From Longimicrobiales bacterium (GTDB lineage Bacteria > Gemmatimonadota > Gemmatimonadetes > Longimicrobiales > Gaopeijiaceae), in the NCBI GenBank assembly GCA_965203485.1, contig OZ241892.1, forward strand, positions 1,088,001 through 1,152,000: 64,000 nucleotides of DNA, given 5' to 3'. The position numbers were made by a program. Below, one piece after another: positions 24,956-33,900 of this stretch. Position 1 is the first letter of the stretch; every line of letters begins with the position of its first letter.

Positions 24956-27900
24956 TCCACCTGTTCTCAGGGGCCGCGCCGCGGGATTCGGACGAGGTGG
25001 CGGCGGTCCTTGCGGACGCGGACGAGAGCCAGCCGCCGCGAGCCAAGCGCGTGGTGCTCGTCGGAAACCGCATCTCGCCGGGCAATCCGGACACGAAGCC
25101 CGACGGAACCGTCGTGCGGACGCTTTGGGGCGAGCTGGCGTGGCAACTGGGGGGACGCGATGCCTTCGAGCAGGTGCGGGCGGACGACGAGAACGCCACC
25201 AGCCCCGGGGATCGCCTCCGCGCCCTGCTGGCCGCCCGCGGACCGGTTCTCGTCCTCATCGACGAGTGGGTCGCCTACGCGCGCCAGCTTCACGATCAAG
25301 GCGACCTGCCGGGCGGGAGCTTCGAGACCCAGTTCACGTTCGCCCAGGCGCTGACCGAGTCGGCGAAGGTGGTGGACGACTGCCTGCTGGTCGTGTCGTT
25401 GCCGGCCTCGGCGCCGGGCTCCGAAGGCGCCCACCCGCACGCCGACGACGCGGAGGTCGGGGGCGTGCGGGGCCGCGACGCGCTCGACCGCCTGTCCCAC
25501 GTGGTGGGAAGGGTGGGCGCGGTCTGGCATCCGGCCACTTCGGAAGAGGCGTTCGAGATTGTCCGGCGGCGTCTCTTCGAGCCCCTCCAAGGCGACGACG
25601 CCTTCAAGGCGCGCGATCTGACGGCGCGGGCTTTCGCCGAGTTGTACCGGCGCGCCCAAGGCGACTTCCCGCAGGAGTGCCGCGACGCCGACTACGAGAA
25701 GCGCATTCGCGCCGCCTACCCCGTCCACCCGGAGATCTTCGACCGGCTGTACACGGACTGGTCGTCCCTGGTGAAGTTCCAGCGGACGCGGGGCGTGCTG
25801 CGGCTCATGGCCTCGGTCGTTCACAGCCTCTGGGAGAGCGGCGACAAGAATCCGCTCGTCCTGCCGTCCACGATTCCCGTCGACGACTCGCGCGTCCAGC
25901 CCGAACTCACGCGCTACCTCGCGGACAACTGGACGCCGATCATCGAGAAGGACATCGACGGGTCGGCTTCGTTGCCGCACCGGCTGGACAGCGAGTCGCC
26001 CAACCTGGGCAAGCTGTCGGCCACCCGCCGCGTCGCTCGGACCATCTACATGGGGTCCGCGCCGCTCACGCTCGCGGCCAACCGGGGCATCGACGACCGC
26101 CGGGTCAACCTGGGTTGCGCCATGCCGGGCGAGCAGGTCTCGTTGTTCGGCGACGCGTTGCGCCGTCTGGCGGCGGCGGCCACGTACCTCTACCAGGACG
26201 GCAACCGCTACTGGTACGCGACCCAGCCCACCGTCGCCAAGCTGGCCGAGCAACGGGCCGCGGAGCTGGCGGGCGAGCCGCACAGAGCGGCCCAGGAACT
26301 CGAACGCCGCCTCCGCAAGGAGTTCGACGCGGTGGGACCGGACCAAGTCCGGGTGCACATGCTGCCGAGGTCCGTCGCCGACGTGCCCGACGCCTTGGAC
26401 GCCCGCCTGGTCGTGCTCCCCGCCGACAAGCCGTACTCCAGGGACGCCGACAACGCGGCCACGGCGGCCGCGAAGGAGATTCTGGCGCGCCGGGGCGCCG
26501 GTCCGCGCATCTACCGCAACACGCTGGTGTTCCTGGCCGCCGACAAGGTGCGGATGCAGGACATGGACCAAGCTCTGCGCGAGTACTTGGCTTGGCAGTC
26601 GATCCTGGCCGAGACGGACGCGCTCAACCTCGACCCGCACCAAGCGAAGCAGGCCGCCGTGCGCGAGGAGTCCGCCGACGAGTCGGTCGCCGCCCGCATG
26701 CCCGAGGTCTACAAATGGCTTCTGGCTCCCGAGCAGGCGAACGCGAGCGCGCCCGTCGAGTGGAGGGCCTTCCAGATGCGGAGCCGCGAGTCGGCGGCGG
26801 CGAGTGCGCTTGGCCGAATCGGCAGGGAAGACCTAGCGCTTCCCCGCATGGCCGCGAGCATCCTCCGAAGGCACCTGGACGACGTGCCGCTCTGGCGCGG
26901 AAACCACGTCCCGGTTCGCCAGCTGGCCGAGGACTTCGCCACCTATCTCTACCTGCCGCGCCTGAAGGCGCCGGCCGTGCTCGCCCGCTCGGTGTGCGAA
27001 GGCGTGGGGCTCTTGTCCTGGGAGCTGGACAGCTTCGCGTACGCGGACAGCTACGACGAAGCCAAAGAGCGTTACGTCGGCTTGCGTGTGGCGATCGGCG
27101 TGGAGACGACCGCCGACGACCACGGTTTGGTCGTCAAGCCGGACGTGGCGGGCGCGCAGCTGGAGCAGGAAGCGCCGACGGCGACCAACACGCCTGTGGA
27201 GTCGGAAGAGTCGGGCGGGACCGAGGGTGGGGACGCCGCGGTGCCCGAGGACGACCGGGACGGGACCCGTGACGAAGACGAGCGTCCCCGCGCACGCCGC
27301 TTCCACGGCTCGGTGAGCTTGGACCCGCAGCGCGTCGGCCGCGACGCGGGCCAGATCGCCGAAGAGGTGATCGCCCACTTGGCCGGCCTGGTCGGCTCCG
27401 ACGTGCGGGTGGCCCTGGAGATCGAGGCCGACATGCCGGACGGCGCGCCGGACCGCGTCGTGCGGGCGGTCACCGAGAACTGCCGCCAGCTGAACTTCTC
27501 CAGCCAGGGCTTCGAGGCGGAGTAAGGGGACGGCATGGCACGATCGAGATTTCCGCGCGGTGGCTTGTCGGCCTTTGCAAGGGGCCTGGGCTCGCTACTC
27601 GACCTGGAGATCGCGGGCCACGACCTGATCAACGCTCGTGATCGGAGCGCTTACGGCGGGCTGACGTCGAGCACGACCACGCGAATGAACCGTTGTTGCT
27701 CCTCCGAGAGCTGTCGGCGAAGACTCTCCTCCAGTTGCTCGGGGGACTTCGGGCGGCGGCCGCTCGGGGGCACCATGCAGTCCACGCCGAACCAGAGAAC
27801 TAGGTAGATGCCGTGCCCCTCACATGCAGGATCACAGACATACTGTTTGATCAACTGGTTGCCTACCGCGCTCCAAAGTTCGCGATGGTTGCTCTTCTTG

Positions 27901-30900: not shown

Positions 30901-33900
30901 AAGTGCTCGGCCACGTTGCGATGAGCCGGAACAAGGGCTCCGGGGGTGTCGACGGACGAGAACAGTCTCGTGTCCAGGGCGGCCCTCAACACGTTTATGC
31001 CTCCAGCTGGCCGCGCTTTGGCAGGAAGCTCTTCAAGCATGAGCGACAAGTCGGCTTCGGAGTCAGCATGGCCTGTGCCGGTTGGCTCGATGTGCTCCTT
31101 TCCAGCAATCAGAGAAAAGGTTGCCAGGCAACCGGCAGCCGAGATCTTGTCGTCCACGGCGACCTCGCGTGCCACTTTGTGTTCTTGGTTGTACTCCCTA
31201 GCCAACGCGCGACAAGCCATCTCGAACGTCTCGAGCCTGCCTTCGGGCCAGCGACCGTCCGTCGCGAATGCCTTGGCCAGCAGGCGAAGCGTAAGGGGAT
31301 GATCAAGCAGTTCGGCAAGGCCGCGATCGCGGGCCTGCAACAGAAAGTCGTCGCCGACCATCCCCCCGTGCTCGGCCAGCAACTGATTGGCGTTTGCTTC
31401 CGTGAGCGGGTCCAGACGGAGCAGAAGCAAGTCCTCGTAGCCGGACAGCGACCGAAACTCTTGGTCGTCGTTGCCCGACAGCCAAGCCGCCGCTCGGCAG
31501 GATATTCTCACGCGGGGTCGGCCGAGCGTCTGCAGCTTCTCCAGGATGTCGTCGAGGGGCTTGCGCGGATCGCCGTCTCCGGCGCGCGCCTCGTCGAGTC
31601 CATCGATGAAGAGAGTTTCTTGCTTCCACTCCGGCCGATGACGAGCCTCCCGCAGAAAGCGGCGCACTGGGACGTAGACCCCTTCCAATCTTGCGGCCTG
31701 CTTGAACTCGGTGGTCTTGCCAGCCCCAGGGTCTCCGAGCAGCACGAAGGCGCGCACATGCCCGAAGGCGGAGATCGGTTGCGACATCTCTGCGCCGTCA
31801 CGAGGCGAAGCCGAGTTTCCGCCAACGGCGGCGGGGAATCGGTCGTCCGAGTTGATGGCGGTCGGCGTCGTGTCCCCGCGCCTGCTCGCGTCGATGGCGG
31901 TCGCCGCTTTGTGCTCGCCCTTGACCAGAGTGACGGTCCGAGGGACGATCAGCTCCGTCTTCATCCTTCCTCCAGCCAGTACGCGGCGGGCTCCCACAAA
32001 AACTCGTTGAGCGGAGTCCCTCCAGTGCCGACGAGCCGCGTCCTGGCCCCGGGGAAGCGAGCGCGAAACGCCTCCAAGCCGCTGGTCGCTCCCTTCTTGC
32101 CGCTCTTCACTTCGATGCCGACGACGTGCGGGCCGCGGGTCAGGACGAAATCCACTTCTTGGTCGTCGCGGCGCCAGTAGTGAAGCTTCGCCGCCGGGGG
32201 CAGCGTGTTGTGGAGATGGGCTCCCACGGCGCTTTCGACGATCCTTCCCCACAGGCTGCGGTCGCTCCTCGCCTCGTCGAAGGAATAGCCCAGATGCGCG
32301 GTCATGACGGCGGGGTCGAGCACGTTCAGCTTGGGCGGAGAAGCCCGGCGAAGGTGGCTCTTGGCGGAATACCTGGGAAGACCGGTGGCCAGCCCCGCAT
32401 CTGCGAGGAGTTTCAGGTAGCGAACCAGCGTGGTAGCGTTGCCCGCGTCCTGCAGCTGGCCCAGCATCTTGGTGTAGGCGAGAATCTGCCCGGAATAGTC
32501 CGGCACGAGTTCCATCAGCTGTCGCATCAGCGCGGGCTTGTCGACTTTGGCGAGCGAGAGGATGTCTCGGTTGATGACGGGCTCGACGATCGAGCCGAGG
32601 ACGTAATCGCGCCAAACGTCCATGTCGCCCCGCATTTGAGCCGCCGCCGGATAGCCGCCAAAGAACATGTACTCGTCCAGGGTCAGGTCGAATGCCGACA
32701 CCATCTCCCGAAGCGGCCACTGGCGAACGGGCACCCGCATGAAGCGGCCCATCAAGCTCTCGTCAAGACCCGTCATCAGATCCCACGGAGCCGAGCCCAG
32801 CACGACGACCCGCAAAGGGCAGCCCTCGGATCGGTCCCGGTCCCACATCCCCTTGACCAAGCCGGACCAGCCTTCGATGTGCTGCACCTCGTCCAAGGCC
32901 AGGACGAACCCCGACGGGCTTGCGCGGGCGGCCCGGCGCGCGCGTTCCCAGACGTTCACGAGCCATTCCCTGGGAGGCACCTCGCCGAGCTTGCCGAAAG
33001 AGGCCTCGTGGGTGGCCGGATCGTCGACGGCGACCAGCCAGTGAGGAAGGCCCGTGCGCCGAAAGGCCTGCTCGGCGATGGTGGTCTTGCCCGTCTGCCT
33101 GGGACCGATGACGGCTACGAGCTTGCGCGGCTCCATTGCCAGGAACTGCACGACGCGCTCGACGAGCGGTCTCTCGTAGGTGCTCATGCGAATATTATCC
33201 GTGATTGAATAGTTTTCCGCGATGACGTAATCATACTACAGCGAGGGGCAATCCGCCAAGCCGGAGCGCGTCCCTGCGCCTCGCCCCTACCGGACTCGCA
33301 GGGCCTCGGCGGTCGCTCGGAACGCCTCGTCGCGCTCGGTCGCGAGGCCCAGTTCGACGAGGGAGTCCAGGTCGCGTTGCAGGGTGCGCTCGGAGAGAGC
33401 GCGGTAGGCGCGTCCGAGGCCGGCGTCCAGCTCGGCGGCGTCGCCGGGGCCGACGGCGCGGTCCAGGGGCAAGGACAGGGCGAGCGCGCGGCGGCGGCGC
33501 ATCACGGTCTTCTTGTGGTGCTCGTGGGCGTCGAAGCGGGCGAAGACGAACGCGCGCCAAGCGGCCCGCCATTGGTGTTCGCGCAACGAGCGCGCCACGG
33601 CGGCCAAGCCGTCTCGGAAGCCGGCGACGGCGTAGGACACGAACGAGGTGAGCGACCGGTCGGCCACGGTTTGGCGGAGCAAGCGCTCGTAGTGGCGGCG
33701 CGTCTGCGCGTAGTGGACGGTCGCCAGCGAGACGGCGAGGGCGGGGACGCCGGCACGGGCAAGCACGTAGGTCTCCATCAGGCGGGCGGCGCGACCGTTT
33801 CCGGCGGCGAACGGGCGAATCCACGCCAAGTACGCATGGACGGCGGCCGCATGCGCCAGAGCGCCGCCGGAATTGGAGCCGTCGGCGGACGGCGCACCCG

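Follow-up and report, generated by a model that had tools for sequence, protein, structure and literature searches.

In the window, a 64,000-nucleotide stretch of a Longimicrobiales genome, the gene for a small ATPase-nuclease runs into the gene for a giant NTPase, raising the question of whether the two proteins form one anti-phage system and what the smaller one contributes to it. The genome-wide survey's note read them as a two-component anti-phage system. The pair is indeed a real, conserved and co-inherited unit, with a sensor-like giant bearing a C-terminal PD-(D/E)xK-type domain, but the giant does not always occur with the partner. As argued below, the locus is likely a two-gene anti-phage operon in which an Erebus-type sensor-nuclease is accompanied by a second nuclease subunit, itself gated by NTP.

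The gene pair and its two proteins

The coordinates and anatomy given by the genome-wide survey's note are right (Table 1), as is its count of three ATPase-giant pairs, which tblastn places at C1:1115654-1121187, 2652590-2658042 and 2444210-2449770. All three copies share the ATGA junction and lie among defence or mobile genes, as had been described. An NTGA stop/start overlap joins ATPase and giant in 35 of the 43 pairs examined. Promoter-like sites, defined by consensus match only, number three against 0.4 expected.

Table 1. Features of the ATPase-giant locus, in window coordinates.
Feature	Position	Strand	Remarks
Promoter-like site TTGGCG-18-TATGAT, 5' of gene 1	33230..33259	-	consensus match only
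Gene 1 (ATPase, 408 aa)	31961..33187	-	AAA_14 + DUF4143: P-loop ATPase, winged-helix region, PD-(D/E)xK domain; giant-linked clade
ATPase Walker A (G28-T35)	33083..33106	-	invariant, 22 sequences
Loop insertion, ATPase ~residues 56-72	32972..33022	-	specific to giant-linked clade; sequence variable; low model confidence
ATPase Walker B D99-E100	32888-32893	-	invariant, 22 sequences
ATPase nuclease motif D346 ... E359-x-K361 (DUF4143)	32105..32152	-	kept in linked clade
ATGA, gene 1 stop overlapping gene 2 start	31961..31964	-	4-nt overlap; translational coupling
Gene 2 (giant, 1437 aa)	27651..31964	-	NACHT-type STAND protein, Erebus (EruA)/Avs10 family; NCBIfam NF058535
NTPase module (giant residues 61-420)	30705..31784	-	47-49% identical among three paralogues
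Giant Walker A G77-K83	31713-31736	-	alignment
Giant Walker B + NACHT signature D121-G-L-D-E125	31590-31616	-	alignment
Variable central region (giant residues 421-1240), presumed target-binding sensor	28245..30704	-	role by homology with Avs10 (passages of PMC13581612)
C-terminal helical module (giant ~residues 800-1230)	28275..29567	-	fused directly to partner ATPase in other genomes
C-terminal PD-(D/E)xK-type nuclease domain (giant residues 1241-1437)	27654..28244	-	model + motif
Giant nuclease motif D1340 ... E1354-x-K1356	27897-27947	-	D, E, K invariant in 39 sequences

The claim that the giants match nothing stands for PADLOC 2.0.0 (0 matches for all three) and for the Pfam copy used, but NCBIfam names them. 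The window giant aligns with NF058535 (antiphage_EruA) at E 1.1e-232 and 775.9 bits, its residues 57-1435 spanning model positions 11-1318 of 1318, and the three genomic giants score 772-775 bits, or 404 + 328 bits in two stretches. The equivalog cut-off for EruA is 1000 bits; the window giant falls below it, as do all 13 partner-linked relatives tested (803-986 bits), and those above it are solo giants (L027, L040, L047 and L048 at 1139, 1149, 1031 and 1096 bits). In passages of PMC13581612 (Lee et al., Nature 2026), Erebus, Hypnos and bNACHT64 are equated with Avs10, a sensor of phage major capsid proteins; van den Berg et al. 2024, listed among that paper's references, is a further source on the family. 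The giant very likely belongs to the Erebus/Avs10 family of defence proteins. Because it is a full-length relative of this published antiphage NACHT family, a function for DUF8371, which the locus had been expected to supply, is largely given already.

Besides the end-to-end alignment, the giant shares with Erebus/Avs10/bNACHT64 a Walker A motif, the NACHT signature D[GAS]hDE (as defined in the Kibby et al. preprint; DGLDE here), a long central region, a C-terminal D...ExK motif and, for the window locus, a setting in a defence island. It differs in its score of 776 bits, below the cut-off, and in being coupled to an upstream ATPase-nuclease gene, which is missing next to the sequences above the EruA cut-off and goes unmentioned in the main text of PMC13581612. 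The residues previously listed as invariant are so across 22 sequences (G77, P79, G80, G82, K83, D121, D124, E125, D1340 and K1356) except E1354, which reaches at least 90% there and is invariant in a 39-sequence C-terminal alignment. An AF2 model of giant residues 1223-1437 (pLDDT 89.7, pTM 0.82) has mostly restriction-type nucleases as structural neighbours in Foldseek and VIA, and the best individual matches to this predicted fold are modest, at a Z of 7.7 and a Foldseek E of 1.3e-3.

Gene 1 matches Pfam AAA_14 and DUF4143, the latter listed among PD-(D/E)XK families in a passage of PMC3424549, and PADLOC model PDLC04791 (PDC-S01) over its full length. The E-values reported for the three ATPases are reproduced: 2.1e-139 for the window copy, 4.8e-142 and 8.3e-128. 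Its AF2 model (pLDDT 84.3) finds PAB2304, ORC/Cdc6, CED-4, Apaf-1 and NRC3/4 as top Foldseek matches, and on this predicted fold the small NTPase may be placed either with STAND proteins or with ORC/Cdc6-type AAA+ proteins. Its K34, D99 and E100 are retained in 43/43 linked homologues and in 37-38 of 38 non-linked ones.

Linkage, co-inheritance and fusion

In 40 of 51 loci, drawn from ten or more phyla, the gene directly upstream of the giant and in the same orientation encodes an ATPase homologue of 43-56% identity; 30/30 loci from the genome's own order show this arrangement. The giant-linked ATPases form one clade with SH-aLRT support of 100 (43 rows), and the support is again 100 when fusion proteins enlarge it to 85 rows. 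The clade is marked by a loop insertion present in 43/43 linked ATPases and absent from 56 non-linked ones: the segment 46-84 measures 34-61 aa in the former and 25-30 aa in the latter, with residues 61-70 modelled at a pLDDT of 55. ATPase and giant identities are correlated with r 0.897, a value reached in 0 of 2000 Mantel permutations, and the partner diverges more slowly than the giant in 595/595 comparisons.

Within the genome, the three ATPases are 55-62% identical, as noted earlier, and the giants 35.5-39.4% globally. Identity among the giants is lowest in the central region (23-38%) and higher in the NTPase (47-49%) and the nuclease (42-56%); this concentration of sequence divergence in the central region is compatible with the proposal that the three copies have different specificities.

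Intact giants without a partner occur at four or more places of the giant tree (7/42 rows), including those above the EruA cut-off, and have unrelated genes as neighbours. The existence of these solo giants implies that the family can perform its core function without the partner. Linked and solo giants do not differ by any partner-specific insertion or deletion, so no docking element is visible.

Natural ATPase-giant fusions exist, as the survey had reported, and map the link to giant residues ~800-1230. In sixteen proteins of 1789-1834 aa the ATPase carries the entire giant (class b), in six of ~1000-1100 aa it carries giant residues ~800-1437 (class c), and in 47 of ~850-950 aa it carries residues ~800-1230 only (class d). 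The NACHT-less fusions are single open frames in 6/6 relatives' genomes checked; every sampled fusion protein falls inside the giant-linked ATPase clade, and the tree shows that fusion arose several times. All 16 full fusions retain an intact giant-type nuclease motif, four of the six class c proteins have it in decayed form and all 47 of class d lack it, while the partner motif D346/E359/K361 is kept in 43/47, 6/6 and 14/16 proteins of classes d, c and b. This loss of one nuclease and persistence of the other points to the partner nuclease as a working effector.

Weighing the alternatives

It is likely that giant and ATPase work as one system. That they are two independent single-gene systems, one Erebus-type and one PDC-S01-type, merely sharing an operon, is quite improbable: the linked ATPases are monophyletic with a clade-specific insertion, the linkage spans ten or more phyla and the divergence of the two proteins is tightly correlated, and repeated fusions, some of which have lost the NACHT and retain nothing of the giant but its C-terminal module, attached to the ATPase, are hard to explain for unrelated functions. 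Independence would fit the definition of PDC-S01 from genes embedded in other systems (a passage of 10.1101/2024.01.29.577857), a close homologue at locus L052 that overlaps the type I R-M gene hsdR by 4 nt, and the solo occurrence of ATPase and giant elsewhere, including the seven further full-length solo DUF4143 genes correctly counted in this genome. The converse extreme, that PDC-S01 genes in general pair with a DUF8371 giant as a two-gene system and should be redefined as such, is scarcely credible, even though PDLC04791 matches all three partners (8e-128 to 5e-142). Only one monophyletic subclade is giant-linked; among 80 metagenome loci with close homologues (33-50% identity), 56 of them with at least 400 nt downstream, none has a giant-like sequence on either strand of the contig, and none of these homologues falls within the giant-linked clade. 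The model itself scores 590 bits on a solo gene embedded in an R-M system and 424-471 bits on linked ATPases.

Within a single system, the partner could be a regulator or safeguard rather than an effector, keeping the NACHT protein inactive or acting as a loader, a chaperone or a sensor of a second signal (e.g. DNA ends), and being translated first through coupling, like an antitoxin ahead of its toxin. Gene order and the NTGA overlap do put its translation before the giant's in 35/43 pairs, its slower evolution (595/595) is expected of a component contacting conserved parts, and the giant retains an intact nuclease of its own. Such a role is nonetheless unlikely, as the partner's Walker and nuclease residues are kept throughout the linked clade and all fusion classes, the NACHT-less fusions lose the giant-type nuclease and keep the partner's, and solo giants stay intact after partner loss, which is unexpected for a required antidote. 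We tentatively favour a partner that may be a co-effector acting through the giant's C-terminal module.

A possible mechanism and its relatives

Gene 2 encodes an NLR-like bacterial protein of the Erebus/Avs10 type, in which a NACHT NTPase is followed by a fast-evolving central region, presumed to be helical and to act as the sensor, and by a predicted C-terminal PD-(D/E)xK nuclease. Gene 1 represents one special PDC-S01 clade, its P-loop NTPase being ORC/STAND-like and accompanied by a winged-helix region and the locus's second PD-(D/E)xK nuclease. On infection, the giant's central region would bind one of the phage's conserved structural proteins; homology points to the HK97-fold major capsid protein, with each of the three paralogues having its own specificity. 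Capsid sensing is assigned from other Erebus/Avs10 members and would extend to this clade by homology, the sensor regions here being only ~30% identical to relatives. Binding would trigger ATP-dependent NACHT oligomerisation, followed by DNA cleavage and abortion of the infected cell's cycle. The small ATPase-nuclease, made as a stoichiometric subunit by coupled translation, would engage the giant's C-terminal helical module and serve as a second NTP-gated nuclease effector.

Compared with PDC-S01 (AAA_14 + DUF4143, COG1373), catalogued as a single-gene PADLOC phage defence candidate in PMC12988326, gene 1 has the same architecture and catalytic residues, but all sampled members of its clade either accompany giant sequence or are fused to it, and the clade carries the extra ATPase-domain loop. 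In an experiment described in 10.1101/2024.09.26.614923, a single-gene PDC-S01 failed to protect E. coli B from T4, T5 or T7, a result that says nothing positive on the ATPase's action. Like the Avs1-4/AVAST proteins whose nuclease effectors are N-terminal, the full fusions (~1800 aa) are ordered as nuclease-bearing module, STAND NTPase and sensor; unlike in those proteins, the N-terminal module is itself an NTPase and a second nuclease lies at the C-terminus, and this genome encodes the module as a polypeptide of its own. A purely functional analogy may also be drawn with sensor-helper NLR pairs (NAIP-NLRC4; plant sensor NLRs with NRC helpers): at this locus, too, a large NLR-like protein that would sense a ligand is encoded with a small sensor-less NTPase that carries the executing domain, and the small protein's predicted fold resembles ORC/Cdc6, CED-4, Apaf-1 and NRC3/4 over ~375-400 columns. 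The giant differs in keeping its own effector. What is new at this locus is that an Erebus-type giant is tied to an ATPase-nuclease gene until now treated as a stand-alone defence candidate.

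A translationally coupled gene pair in a defence island

The pair consists of an AAA_14–DUF4143 protein (the ATPase) and, downstream of it, a NACHT-type STAND protein (the giant), whose reading frames overlap at the junction GGATGAAG. Two further pairs are found in the same genome by tblastn, and across the three copies the ATPases are 55-62% identical and the giants 35.5-39.4% over their whole length. The paired genes reported in the genome-wide survey's note are thus borne out by the ORFs, the junction and the three copies, and the E-values of the other two ATPases against the PADLOC model PDLC04791 (4.8e-142 and 8.3e-128) are those it gave. 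PADLOC returns no match for any of the three giants, and the genome contains 7 additional full-length solo DUF4143 genes. A sigma-70-type promoter-like site 5' of the ATPase gene is a consensus match only.

The window pair sits within an island of ~23 kb that includes IS, SNF2/NOV_C helicase, GmrSD, DUF1156 methylase, AAA_15/21-DUF3696 ATPase, HEPN_Swt1-DUF499 and Fic genes, and the two other copies adjoin type I restriction-modification genes and IS elements. Much of this content belongs to a Hma-like defence cluster with embedded genes (13878-27525), and GC falls to 0.50-0.59 at ~20-24 kb. The Fic-domain gene is the next gene upstream of the pair, in the same orientation and ~100 nt away, and is absent beside the other two copies. 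Like IS elements, each with DUF4096 and a DDE_Tnp_1 transposase, stand at the island edge and next to copy 3 of the pair (locus L132), which also adjoins another solo AAA_14/DUF4143 gene. Elsewhere in the genome, a near-threshold match to NCBIfam antiphage_ProA (Prometheus) scores 1469.5 bits against a cut-off of 1500.

Features of the paired locus, its copies and related genes (window positions unless a contig or locus is named)
Feature	Position	Strand	Remark
IS (DUF4096 + DDE_Tnp_1 transposase)	11522-12352		island edge
SNF2 helicase with NOV_C	13878-17717	-	Hma-like cluster
GmrSD	17557-19383	+	Hma-like cluster
DUF1156 methylase	19417-22314	+	Hma-like cluster
AAA_15/AAA_21-DUF3696 ATPase	22164-23696	+	Hma-like cluster
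160-180-aa ORF, no matches	23633-24175	+	Hma-like cluster
HEPN_Swt1 fused to DUF499	24160-27525	+	Hma-like cluster
Giant ORF	27651-31964	-	1437 aa; start overlaps ATPase stop
ATPase ORF	31961-33187	-	408 aa; TGA stop within ATG start of giant ORF
Fic-domain gene	33287-34456	-	
Further pair	C1:2652590-2658042		
Further pair	C1:2444210-2449770		
Solo AAA_14/DUF4143 gene	L132:5990-7210		adjoins copy 3
IS (DUF4096 + DDE_Tnp_1 transposase)	L132:7221-8048		adjoins copy 3
Sortilin/BNR gene	L132:18363-19997		near copy 3
antiphage_ProA match	C1:1662334-1667430	-	outside the window
Two giant matches in another genome	G067:C2:2298496-2317988		

Domain architecture and family identity

The ATPase carries the Pfam domains AAA_14 (residues 21-161) and DUF4143 (207-363) and matches PDLC04791, the PDC-S01 model, at E 2.1e-139 (PADLOC). 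DUF4143 is a PD-(D/E)xK family according to PMC3424549, and residues D346, E359 and K361 are conserved. The AF2 model of the ATPase (pLDDT 84.3) matches PAB2304 and Sso1545, which are archaeal Walker ATPases, ORC/Cdc6 proteins including ORC4 and Cdc6/Orc1, CED-4, Apaf-1 and the plant helpers NRC3/4 in Foldseek, at E 2e-8 to 4e-6 over ~375-400 columns, a range that does not separate STAND from ORC-type AAA+. These matches suggest an NTPase of the ORC/STAND kind, with NBD, helical and winged-helix parts.

In the catalogues PDC-S01 figures as a single-gene candidate. PMC12988326 describes it as the fourth most common prokaryotic defence and as experimentally unvalidated, and one representative placed in E. 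coli B gave no protection against T4, T5 or T7 (10.1101/2024.09.26.614923). The window ATPase shares the PDLC04791 match and the AAA_14/DUF4143 architecture but differs in not standing alone. The ATPase-nuclease is also joined to a different defence protein in P0198 (1103 aa), a fusion whose N6_Mtase and Methylase_S domains (type I/IIG-like) precede the C-terminal AAA_14/DUF4143 module.

The giant's family is already known. The NCBIfam model NF058535, 'NACHT domain-containing antiphage protein EruA', matches it full-length at E 1.1e-232 and 775.9 bits (giant residues 57-1435 against model positions 11-1318 of 1318). The giants of the two further pairs behave in the same way, and the HyoA model matches more weakly. 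The window giant scores below the curated equivalog cut-off of 1000 bits, which is exceeded by none of 13 partner-linked relatives (803-986 bits) versus 4 of 9 solo giants (1031-1149 bits). Pfam, like PADLOC, does not recognise the giant: its NACHT model gives no match and nSTAND_NTPase5 reaches only E 0.15. Its Walker A, G77-DPGAGKT (G77-K83), fits GxxxxGK[ST] and is invariant or nearly so, and D121-G-L-D-E125 corresponds to the NACHT signature D[GAS]hDE, with D121, D124 and E125 invariant and G122 at least 90% conserved among 22 homologues; the signature is defined in the Kibby et al. preprint (10.1101/2022.07.19.500537).

Erebus and Hypnos reportedly originate with van den Berg et al. in 2024. 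Lee et al. (Nature 2026, PMC13581612) merge Erebus, Hypnos and bNACHT64 into 'Avs10', report Avs10 as a sensor of phage major capsid proteins (MCPs) whose sensor wraps the HK97 fold, and describe assays of single STAND genes. From this single-gene testing, and from an NCBIfam run of models that holds ProA, HyoA and EruA only, we infer that EruA is organised as a single gene. The window giant differs from this presumed organisation in having a conserved, translationally coupled upstream partner; the MCP-triggered anti-phage activity reported for other Erebus/Avs10 members (PMC13581612) may extend to it.

The C-terminal 215 residues of the giant give a confident AF2 model (pLDDT 89.7, pTM 0.82) whose structural neighbours are almost all PD-(D/E)xK nucleases. 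The top Foldseek matches are PspGI, SfsA, Can2, HindIII and Hjc (E 1.3e-3 to 5e-2), and those of VIA are PaqCI (Z 7.7, rmsd 3.5, 121 aligned), Can2 and BstYI (7.6) and BamHI (7.2), with ~6 of the top 50 VIA rows being non-nucleases by title and every single score under the tool's safe mark. D1340, E1354 and K1356, invariant in 39 sequences, form a D ... (D/E)xK motif. A restriction-endonuclease-like PD-(D/E)xK fold is likely for this domain, a grade short of proven because each structural score is modest. The domain is present in at least 1369 clusters at 50% identity (E up to 1e-30) and lies at, or within ~45 residues of, the C-terminal end in 150 of the 150 matches listed. Among the three giants, identity is 47-49% in the NTPase, 42-56% in the nuclease and 23-38% in the central ~800 residues. 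An ESM Atlas search with residues 800-1230 returned only unnamed clusters with scores <0.9, and a sequence search of the PDB gave no match for either protein.

Profile comparison gives no evidence of close homology between the giant's nuclease and that of the ATPase family, yielding only a 25-column match around D...ExK with a probability of 1.3%. A relative of 1672 aa (P0014), 60% identical to the giant, has a C-terminal extension of ~290 aa for which a precomputed Pfam list names HEPN_Swt1 and PF01035. An EruA of a Pseudomonas MAG (L027:9877; 1139 bits, above the cut-off) has an in-frame TAG 28 codons short of the end of the aligned region.

Linkage, solo homologues and natural fusions

A neighbourhood scan with the giant alignment against one genome per species returned 51 loci. 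In 40 of them the gene immediately 5' of the giant, in the same orientation, encodes an ATPase homologue (43-56% identical), and 11 have none; the linked loci represent Gemmatimonadota, Latescibacterota, Pseudomonadota, Acidobacteriota, Chloroflexota, Actinomycetota, Nitrospinota, Spirochaetota, Tectimicrobiota and other phyla. Among 43 pairs (these 40 and the genome's own three), 35 have a 4-nt NTGA overlap, 6 meet within 13 nt, one is an in-frame fusion (locus L012) and one is frameshifted (L036). Within the organism's own order, the giant occurs in 62 of 401 genomes—61 of 256 in its own family and 0 of 144 in the two other families—and the ATPase is upstream in 30 of 30 giant loci fetched, its own included. 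Genomes of the order often carry more than one giant. One Longimicrobiales MAG (L022) has two complete pairs in tandem, and the genome G067 has two giant matches ~11 kb apart, the partner having been looked for at one of them.

A tree of 116 ATPases places all 43 linked sequences in one clade (SH-aLRT 100) nested among homologues without a giant, and the three ATPases of this genome cluster (support 96) beside two Longimicrobiales pairs. Members of this clade never occur without giant sequence in the samples analysed. In all 43 a variable loop is inserted after strand 2, ahead of the following helix; the segment measures 34-61 aa in them and 25-30 aa in 56 non-linked ATPases. Identities of the two proteins are correlated across 35 loci where both are complete (r 0.897, reached by 0 of 2000 Mantel permutations, in a test inflated by kinship of the sequences), and the ATPase is more conserved than the giant in 595 of 595 comparisons (means 56% versus 37%). 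The correlation shows co-inheritance, not interaction.

The link has limits on both sides. When metagenomes were scanned with the ATPase alignment instead, 80 loci were retained whose ATPases share 33-50% identity with that of the window; giant-like sequence on either strand was found at none of them (56 have at least 400 nt downstream), no ATPase among them falls inside the linked clade, and at L052 the ATPase gene overlaps a type I hsdR gene. Taken as a whole, the PDC-S01 family is therefore no two-gene system, contrary to what the survey's note had proposed. The giant, for its part, can clearly exist without a partner. In a giant tree of 42 rows, built without rows with frameshifts, contig ends or <1200 aa, the 7 solo giants fall in at least four places of this unrooted tree, and their neighbours are unrelated genes. 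Linked and solo giants are distinguished by no insertion/deletion or motif, only by scattered residues, and an N-terminal 'RTCT' motif does not track partner presence. Small ORFs 5' of solo giants, two with 4-nt overlaps, are unrelated to each other and to the ATPase and have no Pfam matches.

A search for longer ATPase relatives gave 80 proteins, which were sorted by BLAST against the giant: 16 full fusions of the ATPase and the whole giant (1789-1834 aa), 6 in which the ATPase precedes giant residues ~800-1437 (class c), 47 in which it precedes residues ~800-1230 only (class d, about 850-950 aa), 6 apparent cut-off full fusions and 5 without a giant part. The fusion at L012 and the protein P0089 are 68% identical, so the full fusion is a lineage and not an assembly error, and in each of the 6 genomes of relatives fetched the class d gene reads as one uninterrupted frame. 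A second tree of 140 rows, which left out 18 distant non-linked rows and 3 solo paralogues of this genome, sampled 22 of 47 class d proteins, 14 of 16 whole-giant rows by the BLAST rule and all 6 of class c; every sampled fusion lies inside the linked clade (85 rows, SH-aLRT 100), and class c originates in three places. Walker and nuclease residues of the partner survive in 43 of 47 class d proteins, in all 6 of class c and in 14 of 16 full fusions. The nuclease motif of the giant type is intact in all 16 full fusions but has decayed in 4 of 6 class c proteins. Evolution has thus combined this ATPase with the giant more than once, and fusions that have lost the NACHT retain the C-terminal helical module of the giant on the ATPase.

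A class d gene (~860 aa) adjoins a Sortilin/BNR-repeat gene (~1130 aa) in 3 of 3 same-family relatives scanned (L164, L168, L169), and in the genome of the window a Sortilin/BNR gene is found ~4.6 kb away from copy 3. The neighbourhood may be a shared integration hotspot.

Proposed mechanism, alternatives and significance

The observed family membership, motifs, operon structure, co-inheritance and fusion map frame a model that infers the trigger, the protein-protein contact and how the two nucleases share the work. The giant would act like its reported relatives, its central region binding a structural protein that phages conserve, in all likelihood the major capsid protein. Its NACHT would oligomerise with ATP, and nuclease activity would then kill the infected cell or the phage DNA. 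The three paralogues, diverging most in the central region, would cover different phages. The ATPase-nuclease, produced in step with the giant via coupled translation, would be a second NTP-gated nuclease acting together with the C-terminal helical module of the giant.

The partner might instead be a regulator or safeguard of the giant, which we consider rather unlikely, and it is very unlikely that two independent systems simply share one operon. Complex prediction for the ATPase and giant residues 1-590, from own alignments, scores 0.01 and speaks neither for nor against an interaction. The model of a second nuclease could also be taken further, to a bacterial sensor-executor NLR pair in which the capsid-bound giant recruits and activates a sensor-less ORC/STAND-like ATPase-nuclease via its C-terminal helical module, and by extension the very abundant solo PDC-S01 proteins would be generic NTP-gated nuclease executors pluggable onto different sensors. 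Natural replacements of the NACHT by the ATPase before the same helical module, and the methylase fusion P0198, hint at this reading, which we nevertheless judge improbable. The analogy with sensor-helper NLR pairs would call for an ATPase that is a sensor-less NBD-HD-WHD NTPase, a point on which its Foldseek matches do not separate STAND from ORC-type AAA+, and for a giant that nucleates hetero-oligomerisation of this helper.

The literature searched, which includes the paper of Lee et al. and the Kibby and Payne preprints, contains no statement of an ATPase-nuclease partner for any Erebus/Avs10 member, a question on which van den Berg et al. 2024 and the large supplementary tables of Lee et al. 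may bear; 7 supplementary files of PMC13581612 make no mention of Avs10, Erebus, COG1373 or DUF4143. Current annotation misses or mis-splits some of the Erebus/Avs10 family, as PADLOC 2.0.0 calls the small gene only and the NCBIfam cut-off excludes the giant. PDC-S01 is abundant without demonstrated function (PMC12988326), and one single-gene assay was negative (10.1101/2024.09.26.614923). Against this background, the locus anchors one PDC-S01 clade in the functional setting of a characterised NLR-like capsid sensor, fusions in nature point to the giant domain with which that clade works, and the pair offers a concrete, cheap experimental handle on both families. If the partner is a separate executor, sensor-helper NLR pairs would have a counterpart in prokaryotes.
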